Below are positions 5,386 through 59,678 of a DNA stretch of 64,000 nt, piece by piece. The first letter of the stretch is position 1. Each line of letters opens with the position of its first letter. The translations under genes were made by a program, and so were the position numbers. The stretch comes from Glaucostegus cemiculus (lineage: Eukaryota): the NCBI GenBank assembly GCA_976551045.1, contig CDPCPM010000077.1:3224001-3288000 (forward strand), written 5' to 3'. The notes below the pieces were generated by a model. That model saw nothing but the letters and a program-made list of their open reading frames with translations. It searched no databases and was not told where the DNA came from.

Positions 5386-5689
5386 AAATTCAAGTGTTTA
5401 GCCTCAGAGGGGGCGTTAATGTTGCCATGGGGCTAGTTGAGTAAACGGGAATTAGGAATATGCCTATTAGGTTGAGCGAGACTAATTGAGAAAAGCGATT
5501 TGTTCAATGTGTGATTTCCTCTGGATGATGAACTAAAAAGGCTGATCTTCAGGGCATGCAAGGAACAGCTCTGGCGGTGGTGTTCATCACTTTTAATCTG
5601 ACGCTTGAAGTGGTGTTCTGGCTGTTTGCTGTGGTTAGAATTTCCACCCCCTCTGTGTCTCTTTCTTCCTTTCCCCTGAGCCAAGGTGT

Positions 5690-6310
5690 TGTTTGAAATT
5701 ACAGGAACCTCATAGCAAGCCCCGCTTGAAGGGCTGTTCCGCCGGACTTTTGTCTTCCTTTGTGAATCCTCCTCCTCCTCACTGTGGGGAAGACGCTTGC
5801 TTCGTGTCAGAAAGCTATTCCACTGTGGGCTGCGTCACACCTCGGCGTGTGCTGCCCTGCGCTGGCGCCTGGCACTTCCTGCTGAAAGCAGCCCCCCCCC
5901 CATTAGCAGAGAGTCAGCCAGTGTCTCGGTTCAGAGCGGGGACCGAACCTGCGACCTCTGTGTTCTTACATGGCTCAGCCACTGACAGGTTAAATCCCCA
6001 AAGCGATCGAGAGAACACCCCCTCCCTCCCCAAGTGCTGAGCGGTATCTCTAGTGTTTCACAACGTTGCTATTGCACTGTAACACCCTGTAATCCTTGTG
6101 CTGGTGCGCTCACTGTAATGCCAGCCGGACAGACAGGAAATCACAGGAGCTCGCAAATCCGTAGCACCGCTCGACAGGTGGGTGAAGTGACTGGTGTGCT
6201 GGGAGTCTACGGTCAGAGCCTTCCAACTGGCTTGCTGGCTGATGACATCGACAGGGTTCTCGTGTTACAATTTTGTTTTTCCTGTTCCTAAAGTTTACAC
6301 GGTAACCTTC
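5690..6310 (+). promoter_or_regulatory. CpG-rich promoter/enhancer-like block with a possible alternative first exon ending at 6301
   Basis: GC and CpG content are visibly higher than in the rest of the window. ETS-type CACTTCCTG (5873-5881) and ACAGGAAAT, TGCGTCA (5831). ATG at 6242 is followed by 20 codons and then ACG|GTAACC. Confidence 0.55.
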
Positions 6311-7409
6311 CTCAACACTCTGCTCTTTGCTCAATGGATTTGATACCAGTGTATTGTTAAAGGATTGCAAACGCAAGGTTGGTGCAAACTTTGGTTTATG
6401 GTTTCCTTCCTGAGAATAGTCTGGCTACCTAAAGAAAGAGGTGTGTGTGAGACAGAGTGTGTATGTGGGGGGTGGGGGCGAGGGTGGTGACGTTACTGAG
6501 AAACGAGATGTGGATAACTTGTGTTTCCAGGCTGCATGTTTACTGACTGGTCCTGGTTCAAGTCTCGCACTGCCGAGACTGTTCTGTTTTCCATCAGTCT
6601 GTCCGCCTGTGGGAATCGGAGCTGTGTCTGAAGCCTGGTTCTTGGCCCCAGCCTGTCAGAAGACGAAGAGTTTGCTGATATTTTTCCAACTGCTGTGCCA
6701 AATACAAATGAAGGGGGGGGGGGGGGGTGAAGAGGGAGAGAGAAGAGAGTTGTAGCGCTGTGGAGCTAATGACGATCTCATCTCTTGCTTCTGGTTGTTT
6801 AATTCCCAAATGTCCAACATGTGCGTTCGATTTTCAAACTATAAGGAATATTTATTGGATATCCGTGTGGCGGGGGAGGGCAGAAAAGTTTGATAAATGA
6901 ATATATGTTATTTGATTGAATTATGAGCTATGCATAATACAGGGTTCATCAGATTGCTCTGCCTGAGATAGTTTACAAATGGATCCTTTTAAGCTGCGTT
7001 AACATTGATTTTTGAGGGGTCACTGCACTAATGGTTAATGATGCCCTTGTCCCACATATTTGTTCCCAAACTGCAGTGTATTTAGATATAATTGTATGTA
7101 AAAGAAGTGTAAATTAGAATCTGGGATTTGTTAGACTCGATGCCAGGAAGAGACAGTAGGGGACAGTTTCCTTGTGATCAGGCTTGGTAAACATAGCAAG
7201 CTTTGCTGATGGGTGTGAAAGATTTGCCTTTTGGAAGCTGGCTACCTGCATGTAATTCTTGAAGACAGCAGCAATAATCCTCTAATACAGGTATAAACGC
7301 AATGTAAATTGGCATATTTTAAAGATGTTCATAATGTGTGTTTTCTTAGCAAAACTTTGATTTTTCAGGCCTGTCCTTGTGCTGTTACTCCACAGCAAAA
7401 GTAAGGGAA

Positions 7410-27820: not shown

Positions 27821-28119
27821 ATCGATACCTGGAACGGGTGGGCTTTCTTACAAGGAAAGTCAGACAGACTAAAGAGTGAGAGGGAACTTCATTGATGCAC
27901 ATAATATCCTGAGGGGTCTTCACAGGGAAGATGTGGAGAGGAAATTTTCTTTCTCTTGCTCCATCTCCATGGGAGATCCGGCTGCTCCCACATTGGCCTT
28001 GTCAGGCACCTGACAGAATTGGAGTGGAAGCAAGTCTTTCTTGATCCTGAGGGACTGCTTGAGATGAAGTTTTATTGCTATTACTTTCAGTTTTCTGAGA
28101 AGGTTTATCCTCCAGCATA

Positions 28120-28487
28120 CCTACCGAATATTGAAAGGTCTGCATAGAGTGGACATGGGGAGGATGTTTTCAGTAGTGGAAGAGTCTGGGACCAGAAGGC
28201 ACAGCCTCAGAATAAAAGTACGCCCCCCTTAGAACTGAGATGAGGAGGAATTCAGCCAGAGGGTGGTGAATCTGTGGAATTCATTGCCGCAGTTGGCCGT
28301 GGAGACCAAGTCATTGGCTATATTTAAAGCGGAGGTTGATAGGTTCTTGATTAATAAGGGCATCAAAGGTTATGGGGCGAAGGCAGGATAATGTGGTTGA
28401 GAGGGAAAAATAAATTAGCCATAAATGGCAGACCAGACTTGATGGGCCGAATGGTCTAATTCTGCTCCTGTGTCTTATGGCCTTACA
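28120..28487 (+). mobile_element. Relatively young CR1 3' fragment with a probable TSD
   Basis: Closely matches the 44270-44668 copy. Flanked by tttatcctccagcata (28104-28119) and tttacacttcagcata (28488-28503). Confidence 0.85.
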
Positions 28488-28530
28488 TTTACACTTCAGC
28501 ATAAACCTCAGAAAATTGAAAGCAATTAAG

Positions 28531-29902
28531 AAGTTATTACTTAATCTGCCCACCACTCAGGCAGAGCATTGAATCATAAATTGCCACTTGAACATTTTTT
28601 CCTTTGTCGGTGCTGGTCTGTTTCCATTACCTTTAACTTTTGTGTTATTTAATCCTTTTCTGCTGAAAATAGTTTCTTTGTTACTCAAGGTATCATCATT
28701 TAGGCCACTACATTCAATTGGGACCTTTTGCAGAAGAGACTCTAATTTTAACTGGCAAATTAAAACTCCACTAAACTCAAGACTTTAATCAATTCTCTAG
28801 CTGCCACTTCAAAGAAAATAACATAAAATTATAATATAAAAGTTATGCATCAATATCCTCAGTGTGTCCATGGTTTAATAAACCAGACATTACTTTGCTG
28901 GTCGATACAGACCATCACAGTTCAGTCCAATTGCTTACCAGTATTAGGTGAGTCTGTCATAGTTAGAGAAGGAAGAAAGTTTGACCAAGATTCCTGTCCT
29001 TAATCTCCAGTCATTGAGCCTGCTGAGGATGAGTAAAGGTTGGACAAATTGTGATTTCCACCCCCACCCCCTCCCTACCCCCAATTCTGCAAGCTTGCAT
29101 ATTACAGTTGATTATTTGAGTGCAGCTACATGTGTTCAAGAGAGGAAGACTAAGGAATTAAAACGGAATCCATATTTCTCTGTGCCCAGCCTTATGATCA
29201 GGTAAGCGATCATAGCTGTTATCTGTGCGGCATCCTCTCAGAGGTTTGCCCGCTAAATTTCAGTTCCTTTTTGTGAAACAGGGCCACACTCAGTGCCTCC
29301 TCTTGAATGTAATATTGGTTTGAGAGCATATTCTCTGAAAAAATATGTAAATGCAGGCCAAAGTCTGGTGCATTGGCACAGCAATTTCCAATACCACCAG
29401 ATAACTTTGCAGAACAGATGCTGAATCGCTAAGGTAGATAACAGAACAGTGAACCTAAGGTGCATATTTCAATGAACGTAAGTAACTGGAAGAATAGAAA
29501 GAGGAAGGAACTTCTCCAGTTGATTACAGAAAAAATCACATTTGGATCATTGACGGGCACATTTTCACTTCCACTGTTAGTTCCCTCCAACCTCTTGTAA
29601 TCAGAAAAATAGGGACTTTAAAAAAAAAAGTGACAATCCCGGGAAAAATCAGTGAGAAAAAACTTGTGTTTCCTATGAAAGAAAATATGCCTTGGCGAAG
29701 GGCCCAATTGAGTGTAGTGGCCTGAATGATGACATCTTGAGTAACAAAGAAACAGTTTTCAGTGGAGAAGGGATTAGGGAACACAAATTTAAAGATATTG
29801 GGAACAGAACCAGTGTTGACAAAGGAAAAAAATATTTATATGATGAATTATGATTGAATGCTCTGCCTGAGACAGTGGTGGAAACAGATTCAGTAATAAC
29901 TT
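28531..29902. repeat. Long degenerate inverted repeat (outer arms 28531-28730 and 29697-29902)
   Basis: gtttctttgttactcaaggtatcatcatttaggccactacattcaattggg versus the reverse complement of the right arm, gtttctttgttactcaagatgtcatcattcaggccactacactcaattggg. The match extends for about 200 bp. Confidence 0.9.
29190..29201 (+). other. Candidate 12-nt microexon CCTTATGATCAG
   Basis: catatttctctgtgcccAG|CCTTATGATCAG|GTAAGC. The length preserves frame and a UGC lies just upstream of the acceptor. Confidence 0.3.
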
Positions 29903-30091
29903 TCAAATGGGGAATTGGACTCATTCTTGATGTGGAAACATTTTCAGAGCCTTGAGGAGAGAGCAACTGAGTGGGATTAATTGGATAGTTCTTTCAAAAA
30001 GCTGACATAAACATGATGAACCAAACAGACTCCTGGGCTACATCAGATCTAATTTTTCTATGTACCGTGTGTGGAGGTAAATAATGAGGTA

Positions 30092-43269: not shown

Positions 43270-44920
43270 CCCATGTGATTGCACATGACTTGCTTCCACT
43301 GCAGTTCTGAGGTTGCTGTCAGACCTGCAGATACTGCCACAAGGAGAGGTGCTTGGCAGCCTTGAGGGTCGTGTACTCCTTAAACCATTTACACTAAGTT
43401 TCTGTGTGCTCCCAGTGCAGGATCTTGGGGTTCTTGATACCATCCAGAATGCTGCTTTTCCATTCACAGTGCACCTGGACTGGGAGTCCCATGAGTCTGT
43501 GGGAATGTTACACTTTTCCGAGGTTGCTTTTAGAGCATCCTTGAATCTTTTCTTCCGTCTGCCTGGTAATCTCTTGCTGTTACAGAGCTTGGAGTAGAAG
43601 GTCTCTTTCAGGGGTCAAGTGTTGGAAATCCAAGCAATATGGCAGGCCCTTTGGAACTGACGGAGTGTAATTAAGGCCTCAAAGCTGGGGATGTTGGTCT
43701 GGAAGAGGACACTGATGTTAGTTCAATCATCCTGATAATGGTTTTGGAAGATTTTGCAGAGATGGTGTTAATGGTATTTCTCCAGTGCTTTGAGGTGCCT
43801 GCTGTAAGTAGTCCATGTCTGAAGCACAAAGAAGGGGACAAACATCACTGCTGTCTGGTAGACCATAAGCATGGTCAAATACTGTGCTGCCTCATTAAAG
43901 GTGTTAGTAGATGCCTGTCTTTGCTGAGGAGGGTTTCCTGAACTATGTGATGTGGCCTTAATTTTCCATGGTCTCACTGTTAAGTTTTATAATCGTGGAG
44001 CAGTGGAGTGTACAGTGGAGGTGTGTTGGTAGTGACCTTGTTTCACAGATGTTAAGAGATTGGACTCTCATTTGCTTTGGGGAATGAGTCGACAGTGACT
44101 TGGAACTTGGCCACTGAAAGTTCATGTAGGCATACTACAGCTCGATGACTTAAGTTGGGGTGAGCTTAGTTGTGGAATGTAGGCAATGTTGGTTGAACAA
44201 TTTCCCACTTGTCCTACAGATTAGCTTCACTTCAGTAGGAAGCTTTTTGGAGTATTTGATGTCCTTAAGCCTATACTTGGTGGAGTTCAGAAGGATGAGG
44301 GGGGAATCTCATTGAAGCCTACCGGATACTGAAAGGCCTGGATAGAGTGGATGTGGAGAGGATGTTTCCATTAGTAGGAGAGTCTAGGATCCGAGGGCAC
44401 AGCCTCAGAATAAAGGGGCATCCCTTTAAAACTGAGATGAGGAGGAATTTCTTCAACCAGAGGGTGGTGAATATGTGGAATTCATTGTCATTGAGGGTTG
44501 AGGAGGCTCAGTCATTGGGTGTATTTAAGACAGAGGTTGATAGGTTCTTGATTGGTAAGGGGGTTAAAGGGTGATGGGGAGAATGGGGTTGAAAAAAAAG
44601 TCAGCCATAATTGAACGGTAGATCAGACGATGGGCTGAAAGGCCTAATTCTGCTCTTATGGTCTTATGGAGGTGAGGTACAGCAGTATGGCGAGAGAGGA
44701 GCTGAGCAATGATGGCAACTTTACTTGAGAACAGTCTGGACTGAGATTGGGTGAAGCGGCTGGAATTATTAAACAGCAGTGTGTGAAATCCACTAGAGGG
44801 CGCATGCATTAAGTGCAATTTGTGTGAAAGTTTTGCTGAAGTTAATAGATTCCCTCAATTTGCTGGAGGAATGTTCCTCAGTCATATTGTACCGGCAGAT
44901 TGCAAGGGAACTTCACTGCT
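43270..44920 (-). mobile_element. Decayed RTE-clade (BovB/Expander-like) LINE interrupted by a CR1
   Basis: Minus-strand ORF MVYQTAV...QTWTTYSRHLKALEKYH. Plus-strand gagcatccttgaatcttttcttccgtctgcc reads RRKKRFKDAL on the minus strand. RTE-like sequence appears to resume after 44668. Confidence 0.75.
44268..44668 (+). mobile_element. Young CR1 3' fragment
   Basis: ORF MDVERMFPLVGESRIRGHSLRIKGHPFKTEMRRNFFNQRVVNMWNSL...FKTEVDRFL; tail (cttatggt)n. Confidence 0.92.
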
Positions 44921-45384: not shown

Positions 45385-47825
45385 CTGGCTGTGTGCTATA
45401 GACCCCAAACAGTGCAAAGGAGGTAGAAGATCAAATTTGTAGGCAAAATTTCTGACAAGTGCAAATCAAGAGGATGCTTATAATGGGAGATTTCAATCAC
45501 CCTGGTATTAACTGGGAATCAATCAGAGTGAAAGACACAGAAATAATACAGTGCATTTGGAGAAACTTTGAGCCAGTTTGTAGTAAACCCAACAAGATGG
45601 ACAAGGTAATCCTGGATTTAGCATCAATAGGAGAAGCAGTTTTGTAGCGGTTTTCATATTTGTTTGGAGTTAGTACAGTTGTGGAAAAGCACAAAGATTT
45701 AATCAAAAATGGTGTGAGTGTTCTAAATTGCGATAGGGCAAATTTTCACCGGACTGGGATACCACTTAGAAAAAATGGACTGGGAGCAGCTTCTAGGTAG
45801 TAGAGTGCATTTGGGAAGGAGAGTCAAAGAGTTCAGTTAAATATGTTCCCACAGAGAAGGAACGAAATTGTCAGATTTATGGCTCCAAGGATGACGAGGT
45901 GGATGGAGAGTAAGTTAAAGGAAAAAGAGGAAACTTAGACTTTGAGAGTTTAATATTTCAGAAAGGCAAGAAAAATATAGACAGTATAGGAATAAAATTA
46001 AAAGAGAAGTTTGAAAAGTGAAGAGCGGATGTGAAAAATATTGGTAAATAAAATGCCGAGTTATTTTATAAGTAGACGAAGTATGTGGCTAATTAATGAA
46101 ATCTTCTTGGTCCGTAAGGGTAACCAGTGTCTGATGGTAAAGGATGGGGGTAAGTTTTTTGATGAATAATTTGTGGCTGTCTTCACAAAAGAGCTGATGT
46201 TTTGGTTAAGCAGGAAGAGTATGAAATATTGGATGGGATATAAATAGTAAAGGAAGAGATATTAGGGATTTGTATCTCTTTGAAAGTCGATAAGTCAACA
46301 AGTCTAGACGATATATATTCCAGGTCATTAAAAAAGTGCAAGGGAAGAAATTTTGGAGGTTCTGGCCTTCAATGTTCAGTCCTCTGTGGCTATAGAAGTG
46401 GTGCCAAATGAGTGAAGAACTATGAATATGATACCATAGTTTAAAGCAAGAGTGGGGAGGATTAAGGCCAGTTAATTGAACTTAACTGGTGGGGAAATTA
46501 TGGAATCATTCTGAGGAATAGAATGAGCCTTCATTCAGAAAGGTGCAGATGAATAGGGAAATGTCAACGTAGATTTAATAGAAGAGTGTGCCTGACAAAC
46601 TTGATAGAATTTTTATTTTGAGGAGATGACAAGGAGAGTCAATGAAGACAATGTGTACTCCATCAAATGCACTGATTTCAGCAAGGCTTTCAACAAAGTC
46701 CAGGCAGGTTGGAAAAGGTAAATCACCATGGTATCCAAGGGAGAGTGGCAAAATTGATTCAAAAGTGGCTCGAAGGAAAGTGTAATGATTAACATGTGGT
46801 TTTGCATCTGAAAGGCTTTTAAAAGCAGGGTTCCACAGAGCTCAGTACTTGGTCCCTTGCTGTTTCTAATAAGAATTAATGGTTTAACTAGAGAGGGCAC
46901 GATAACAAAATTTGCACATGGTGCAAAAATTTGGCGGCACAGTTGACAGCAAAGGAGAAAGTTTTGGATTACAAGAGCATATCAATGGATGGGTTCAATC
47001 GATTAGAAAAGTTGTAAGTGGGACTTATTCTGGAGAAGTGTGAGTTAGAGAGAATTTAGTGAGGTTCAACAATGCAAGGGCATGCAAAATAAATGGGAGT
47101 ATACTGAGAGGTGTGCAAGAACAGAGCAATCTTGACATATATATGCACATATCCTTAATGGTAACAACACATTGATAAGGGGGGGGGGTTAAGATGCATA
47201 TGGGATGATTTCCTTTATTAGTTGAGGCATACACTGTACGAGCAAGGAACTGGTAATAGGACATGTTAGGCCACTGCATGAGCACCACATACAGTTCTGG
47301 TCATCGTATTACAAATAGATTAATGAAGATGTTGCCAGAACTGGAAAATTGTGGTGGTGAAGAAGCATTGATTTCGCTGGTGTTGTTTTCTTTGTAATGA
47401 ATTGATCTGTAGGAACGGTATACTTTGGTACAAGTGACAATAATAAACCCATTCCAGTTCCAATTTAATTGAGGTATTTAACATTAGGAGATTCTTAGAG
47501 TGAATCGAAAGTATCTATTTCCCTCAGCAAAGGAGTCAAAAACAAAGGGACGTAGAGTTATAGTAATTTGGTGGGGGGGGGGGGGGAATGAGAAGAAAAT
47601 CTTTACTCTCAGAAGCTGATTGGAGTTGGAACTTGTTGTGTGGCAGCATGGTAGATGCAGTAACCCTCCCAGCATGTAAAATGTACTTGGATATGTTCTT
47701 GAAGAACAATAACCTATAGGGTTATGCGCCATGTGCTGGACTGCGGAATTAAGCTGTGGCTCTCTTTGGAACACCAGGGACCTCATGGCCTTCTCCTTTC
47801 CTGTAGACTTCCTATATTCCTATGA
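45385..47825 (+). mobile_element. Long decayed CR1 ORF2 (endonuclease, RT and 3' end) with many stops and frameshifts
   Basis: YRP (tatagaccc), LIMGDFNHPGINW, DFSKAFNKV (gatttcagcaaggctttcaacaaagtc), VPQSSVLGPLLFLI and KFAHGAKI motifs in the expected order. Confidence 0.88.
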
Positions 47826-59532: not shown

Positions 59533-59678
59533 GTCCAAAAATTCTGCAGATGCTGAAATTTTGAGCAATACACAAAGTGCTGGAGGAATCAGCAGGTCAG
59601 GCATACGTGGATACATACATAGGTTTCCATAGATGCTGCCTGACCTGCTGAGTTCCTCCAGCACTTTTTGTGTATTGA
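59533..59678. mobile_element. Short Penelope-derived fold-back insertion
   Basis: caatacacaaagtgctggaggaatcagcaggtcaggca / tgcctgacctgctgagttcctccagcactttttgtgtattg. TSD aaccgaaggggaga (59519-59532) and aaccaaaagggaga (59679-59692). Confidence 0.8.

Follow-up and report, generated by a model that had tools for sequence, protein, structure and literature searches.

The inverted symmetry between positions 28531 and 29902 of the window (the whole stretch of 64,000 nucleotides that was analysed) consists of two arms of 200 nt standing 970 nt apart, and not of a palindrome of 1.4 kb. Judged by homology, most of the sequence of the arms comes from an old LINE, of which it represents the 3' end. We consider it quite probable that the structure arose from one old local copying event followed by neutral drift, the G-U tilt in the pairing of the arms coming from a strand bias of mutation together with small numbers. 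The features involved are the following:

28531-28727, - strand: left arm, apparently an inverted copy of the 205 nt with which the old LINE fragment at 29698 begins
29698-29902, + strand: right arm, the putative 5' part of an old 5'-truncated CR1-like 3' fragment and the likely template
28728-29697, no strand: spacer of 970 nt, single-copy, without significant inverted symmetry
29698-29754 (partner 28671-28727), + strand: inner 57 nt common to both arms, either degenerate CR1 or copied flank
29755-30034, + strand: recognisable CR1-like 3' fragment, defined by the profile match and by the pile-up of paralogous contigs in relatives
28120-28487, + strand: separate, better preserved CR1-like 3' fragment (76% to 44318-44669; family D11; profile match)
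28062-28547, no strand: short fold-back (28062-28111 against 28498-28547; core 28080-28111 against 28498-28526)

When the window was compared with itself by BLAST, 28531-28727 matched the reverse complement of 29698-29902 with 79.6% identity over 206 columns (E 6.7e-41), which confirms the outer inverted arms of about 200 bp on which the original prediction had been built. The local score of the arms was 194, while 200 dinucleotide shuffles returned a mean of 23.7 and a maximum of 39, and the structure therefore shows the reverse-complementary arms beyond chance and the spacer of up to about 1 kb that define an inverted duplicate. The arms are real inverted copies and not an assembly artefact, since both occur at the orthologous place in all four relatives analysed and one contig (X10) spans 28498-29998. 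Their inner 74 nt are 86% alike, and the mismatches per third of the arm numbered 11, 14 and 7, an unevenness that was not significant (P=0.27).

The symmetry had been thought to continue inward as a decayed palindrome, with three pairs of short motifs around a common centre. All three pairs were found where they had been placed, with centres at 29208, 29225.5 and 29221, but the symmetry there was no better than in shuffled sequence. The two 485-nt halves of the spacer aligned with a score of 20, against a shuffle mean of 20.5, and 193 of 300 shuffles scored as high; the best of eight scoring schemes was matched by 29 of 300 shuffles and, among 234 real centres at other places in the window, by 28. 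In the spacer, three 12-mers close to the diagonal paired with at most two mismatches, where 2.5 were expected. These results refute the 1.4-kb palindrome. The spacer is orthologous in the four relatives, with many indels. A candidate exon within it (29011-29201) was rejected as coding, the G at 29010 of its acceptor being T in all four relatives and a 5-nt insertion occurring in two. A strong 5' splice-site consensus lies in mid-spacer at 29201-29207 and was the top + strand candidate of a crude exon scan; run X3 carries insertions next to this donor.

The repeat identity of the arms was evaluated by using a profile built from the other LINE 3' ends of the window, with the arms region masked. 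This profile gave 14 matches to CR1-like 3' ends in the masked window and matched 29755-29937 (E 8.5e-11), leaving the first 57 nt of the right arm unmatched; it gave no match to the left arm alone. Hundreds of paralogous contigs stacked on 29815-30026 in the runs of all four relatives. Taken together, the profile match and the contig pile-up indicate that the right arm is the start of an old 3' fragment, homologous to a high-copy 3'-end family, which extends about 130 nt past the arm as an unpaired tail (29903-30034). We take the LINE fragments of the arms and of the window to be CR1; Pfam and atlas searches returned no family name, and a better preserved copy in the window showed 72% identity to a stretch of a catshark protein record. 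For comparison, over 88% of whale shark genes have been reported to carry CR1-like LINEs in their introns (10.1101/443036).

The inner 57 nt common to both arms were compared with the collinear part of eight CR1 copies, and the score obtained was reached by 171 of 1000 shuffles for the right arm and by 51 of 1000 for the left. The inner 82 nt of the left arm were 66% identical (E 0.008) to the CR1 copy at 47457-47544, at its collinear start. Degenerate CR1 is at least as likely as unique flank for the inner 57 nt, and the passage of the arms from CR1 into non-CR1 sequence, as first described, is therefore only a possibility. A DNA transposon or MITE with terminal inverted repeats was discarded, the LINE fragment continuing past the right arm and the spacer being single-copy.

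Copy number was judged from the contigs of the relatives, using four of 13 runs, from four different organisms and each of 1.7-2.0 billion letters, and a threshold of 80%. In all four runs the left arm and 29698-29814 were covered at single-contig depth, bar a few short stray pieces, and neither the left arm nor the inner 120 nt of the right arm was overlapped by any family at or above 80%. Given the inner identity of 86%, a dispersed subfamily of such age should have shown. Eleven other copies in the window were only about 40-54% identical to either arm, while in the same alignment the arms with their flanks showed 71%; by the contigs of the relatives and the copies of the window, the arms are thus closer to each other than to dispersed copies, as is characteristic of inverted duplicates. 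A short deletion immediately ahead of 29856, judged against the family's loose-end consensus, is also common to both arms. As the arms resemble each other far more than they resemble any other copy, a local inverted copy is likely. The preference for local inverted duplication over two insertions, originally argued on other grounds, is therefore upheld by the single-copy depth and by the contrast between 80% and about 40-54% identity. The corrected divergence amounted to 0.18 between the arms and to 0.054-0.075 between the organisms, so the arm copy is older than the five lineages. A single paralogous X3 contig joins 29903 to 28621, a piece resembling the end of the right arm being followed by a 34-letter piece resembling the left arm, and this joint hints at another locus with facing fragments of the same family.

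The kinship of the arms might also derive from two independent, opposite insertions of one CR1 subfamily, homogenised afterwards by gene conversion between neighbouring arms and still evolving neutrally. We consider this unlikely. Such an origin would suit arms that are largely or wholly repeat sequence, with no clearly unique shared flank, and an identity that varies along their length; however, this variation is the non-significant one given above, the two arms share one inner starting point, and no CR1 tail follows the shared part in the left arm.

Under the favoured reading of one local copying event, the 3' end of a CR1-like LINE would have inserted at about 29.7-30.03 kb, an event to which the homology described above testifies and to which we attach the name assumed for the family. 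Its first 205 nt would then have been copied in reverse 1 kb upstream, a step suggested by the local kinship of the arms and for which a template switch in replication or repair is the presumed mechanism. On the divergence values, this copying predates the split of the five organisms. Afterwards, + strand A-to-G and C-to-T changes would have outnumbered their complements, so that inverted pairs came to read G-U-rich, a tilt that distant pairs in the window display and that may be linked to transcription. Template-switch inversions similarly create nearby inverted repeats by local copying of the opposite strand (PMC7954356). The best-supported events of that report have a median length of 12 and a maximum of 128 nt, whereas here about 200 nt would have been copied from 1 kb away, and for this reason a switch of the repair type appears as likely.

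The CR1-like copy at 28120-28487 adjoins the left arm and lies between imperfect 16-nt direct repeats (28104-28119 and 28488-28503), which are likely a target-site duplication. This copy splits the fold-back at 28062-28547, which overlaps the outer end of the left arm and whose score of 34 was reached at 2 of 1524 positions of like geometry. The fold-back has arms of about 30-50 nt and had a loop of about 10 nt before the CR1-like insertion into it, and it is possibly a scar of the copying event or of template switching. We rejected it as a microRNA hairpin, given the 370-nt repeat in its loop and the poor folding of its halves (z -0.08 and 0.31).

The pairing of the arms was then counted column by column. 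Read as + strand RNA, the 206 columns comprised 164 Watson-Crick pairs, 17 G-U, 6 A-C, 9 transversions and 10 gap columns, and the mismatch tally was identical under all four scoring schemes. An excess of G-U on the + strand is therefore present, as had been claimed, but the ratio of 14:3 reported at first was overstated, the correct value being 17:6. Against 50:50 this ratio gave a two-sided binomial P of 0.035. However, 50:50 is the wrong null for the wobble ratio of the arms. The + strand of the window has skews of 0.086 for G over C and of 0.026 for T over A, and in a sensitive set from the same window 14 inverted repeat pairs more than 5 kb apart, which are dispersed copies to whose tilt subfamily differences may add, gave 240 G-U to 174 A-C (58%). 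When each base was used once, the distant pairs gave 150:111 (P=0.018 against 50:50); four nearer inverted pairs of the sensitive set gave 39:24.

The ratio of the arms did not differ from that of the distant pairs (Fisher P=0.19, or 0.18 with each base used once) and was borderline against a strict BLAST set of 18 inverted pairs, which gave 87:77 (Fisher 0.074 two-sided, 0.046 one-sided). Among the other inverted pairs, 13 had 12 transitions or more, and three of these reached 71-74% G-U; when adjacent G-U runs in the arms were counted once the ratio became 11:6 (one-sided P=0.17 at 50:50). The wobble bias of the arms is thus indistinguishable from what distant pairs display. Since these already contain 58% G-U, mutation bias alone would tilt any inverted pair toward the more stable duplex on the sense strand, and strand asymmetry of mutation, first raised only as the alternative, fits the data better than selection. 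A wobble bias alone should not be read as a sign of a selected RNA structure.

On the non-template strand, A-to-G has been reported to exceed T-to-C in mammals and C-to-T to exceed G-to-A in the introns of fish, and such strand-asymmetric transitions in introns, known from mammals and from bony fishes, build G>C and T>A skews (PMC2927911). Either bias would become a G-U excess in an inverted pair. The four taxa named in that report do not include cartilaginous fishes, and our counts pool the transitions that may carry the bias. A literature search on G-U bias in intronic inverted repeats, which included few subscription papers, returned nothing on this locus or on wobble arising from strand asymmetry. 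Seven of the arm mismatches, read by hand as CpG decay, all led to G-U (7:0, against 35:35 in other repeats, P=0.014), although they represent four sites chosen post hoc (P=0.125 by site), one of them confirmed by the C that the relatives carry at 28661. The arm transitions outside this putative CpG decay were an unremarkable 10:6. As CpG decay in the repeats of the window was symmetric (35:35), non-CpG changes are the more plausible carriers of the + strand tilt. Polarising all 32 mismatches by the CR1 copies of the window was dropped, the copies being too distant.

Of 193 rows of differences from the relatives, the analysis covered 40, five of them in the left arm and none in the right arm, whose rows are among the other 153. 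All four relatives carry the base complementary to the right arm of the window at 28571, 28658 and 28661, three of the four do so at 28590, and at 28588 a G faces T in all four. The five left-arm changes of the window all weaken pairing: three convert Watson-Crick pairs to G-U, one converts C-G to G-G (28571) and one converts G-U to U-U (28588). None of the five is compensated in the right arm of the window, on the assumption that the right arms of the relatives match it. The three transitions all yielded G-U and were counted against the neutral reading. The left arm differed from X3 at 5-11 of 197 positions and the spacer at 35 of 680 (P=0.17-0.86, the range allowing for six differences of that contig beyond the rows covered). 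In X12, differences numbered 17 of 369 positions for the right arm with its tail and 51 of 663 for the spacer (P=0.066). Mild constraint is compatible with these data, whereas strong constraint or covariation was not seen among the rows covered.

These values bear on the proposal that the duplicate acquired a role as an intronic RNA duplex, an ADAR substrate or a splicing bridge, with selection purging A-C mismatches and tolerating G-U. The 17:6 ratio set against 50:50, the 7:0 split of the putative CpG decays, the three recent transitions to G-U, the slightly lower divergence of the right arm and tail in X12 and the retention of both arms in five organisms would all agree with it. Nevertheless, we judge it quite unlikely, as distant pairs are already 58% G-U, the recent pair-breaking changes at 28571 and 28588 went without compensation, 32 mismatches and 10 gap columns have accumulated, inner symmetry is missing and neither an exon nor a host gene was identified near the arms. 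Improbable, too, is a fuller version, in which a CR1 fragment duplicated in reverse before the split of five elasmobranch-like lineages was co-opted as a long intronic RNA duplex, its CpG decay was filtered to G-U and it came to serve the host gene as a conserved element for editing or splicing. Selection for a pre-mRNA duplex thus finds no support in the inner symmetry, which equals that of shuffles, in the wobble, which is not distinguishable from the background, or in the rows covered, which lack compensation; the first two are among the three outcomes that the original prediction had itself listed as disproof. If co-option were true, the locus would show, with a date attached, how a retrotransposon duplicate became a regulatory RNA duplex in a lineage that evolves slowly. 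Finally, it is very improbable that one dispersed subfamily or composite repeat gave rise to two unrelated insertions which face each other by chance: CR1-like 3' ends abound in the masked window and one X3 contig has the 34-letter match to the left arm, but at 80% or above none of the four runs yielded a family for the left arm or for the inner 120 nt of its partner.

The folding of the arms was predicted on both strands. The whole region folds alike (-479.6 and -477.1 kcal/mol), while the arm duplex reached -240.5 kcal/mol on the + strand and -215.2 kcal/mol on the - strand, the + strand being more stable by 25 kcal/mol, and the arms pair with each other in the predicted fold. If the + strand is transcribed, the arms are predicted to form a long, though imperfect, duplex open to bystander editing by ADAR. 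Most CR1 copies are fragments of the 3' end and hence pair like SINEs, and pairs of such ends that face each other are known to supply editing in bulk; hyper-editing was reported in elephant shark brain and tied mainly to nearly perfect duplexes (PMC5625713). The arms satisfy the rule used in that work for putative ADAR duplexes, 65% identity within 2 kb. The pairs described there are independent insertions, whereas here the arms are each other's closest kin and editing is only putative.

Inverted duplicates number millions per vertebrate genome (4.3 million in human with loose thresholds), and most are predicted to fold while few are expressed (PMC5398296). The present structure resembles them in its reverse-complementary arms, in a spacer within the range of up to 1000 nt and in the enrichment of such duplicates for repeats. 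Unlike that set, which is mostly intergenic and from mammals, it probably belongs to an elasmobranch intron, its arms are long and its spacer is near the limit. As read here, the structure has little importance, inverted repeat duplicates being very common in vertebrate genomes.

The genomic context was also considered. The strand skews, together with a stretch near 5.4-6.8 kb that resembles a first exon and contains donor-like sites, suggest that the arms probably lie in a + strand intron. The stretch at 5400-6800 is richer in GC and CpG and poor in repeats, its donor-like sites on the + strand are near 5990 and 6178, and it is possibly the promoter and first exon of a host gene. A comparison of 45 selected frames, nearly all from 129 ORFs, with Pfam gave one weak match below the cut-off, and the 10 candidates from a crude scan for splice sites included none that could be recognised, so that these searches identified no exon or host gene near the arms. 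Rfam returned 0 matches at gathering score in the window, and an exact-pattern scan of metagenome contigs with a 30-nt motif of the inner arm returned 0 matches, a result uninformative for a fish locus. At about 40.8-41.15 kb, an assembly gap of 322 N lies beside a CT/CA microsatellite. A short repeat family occurs in about five copies in both orientations (41760, 52403, 53123, 54163 and 59544-59677), and two of these copies, inverted 1-1.7 kb apart, provide further candidate duplex pairs.
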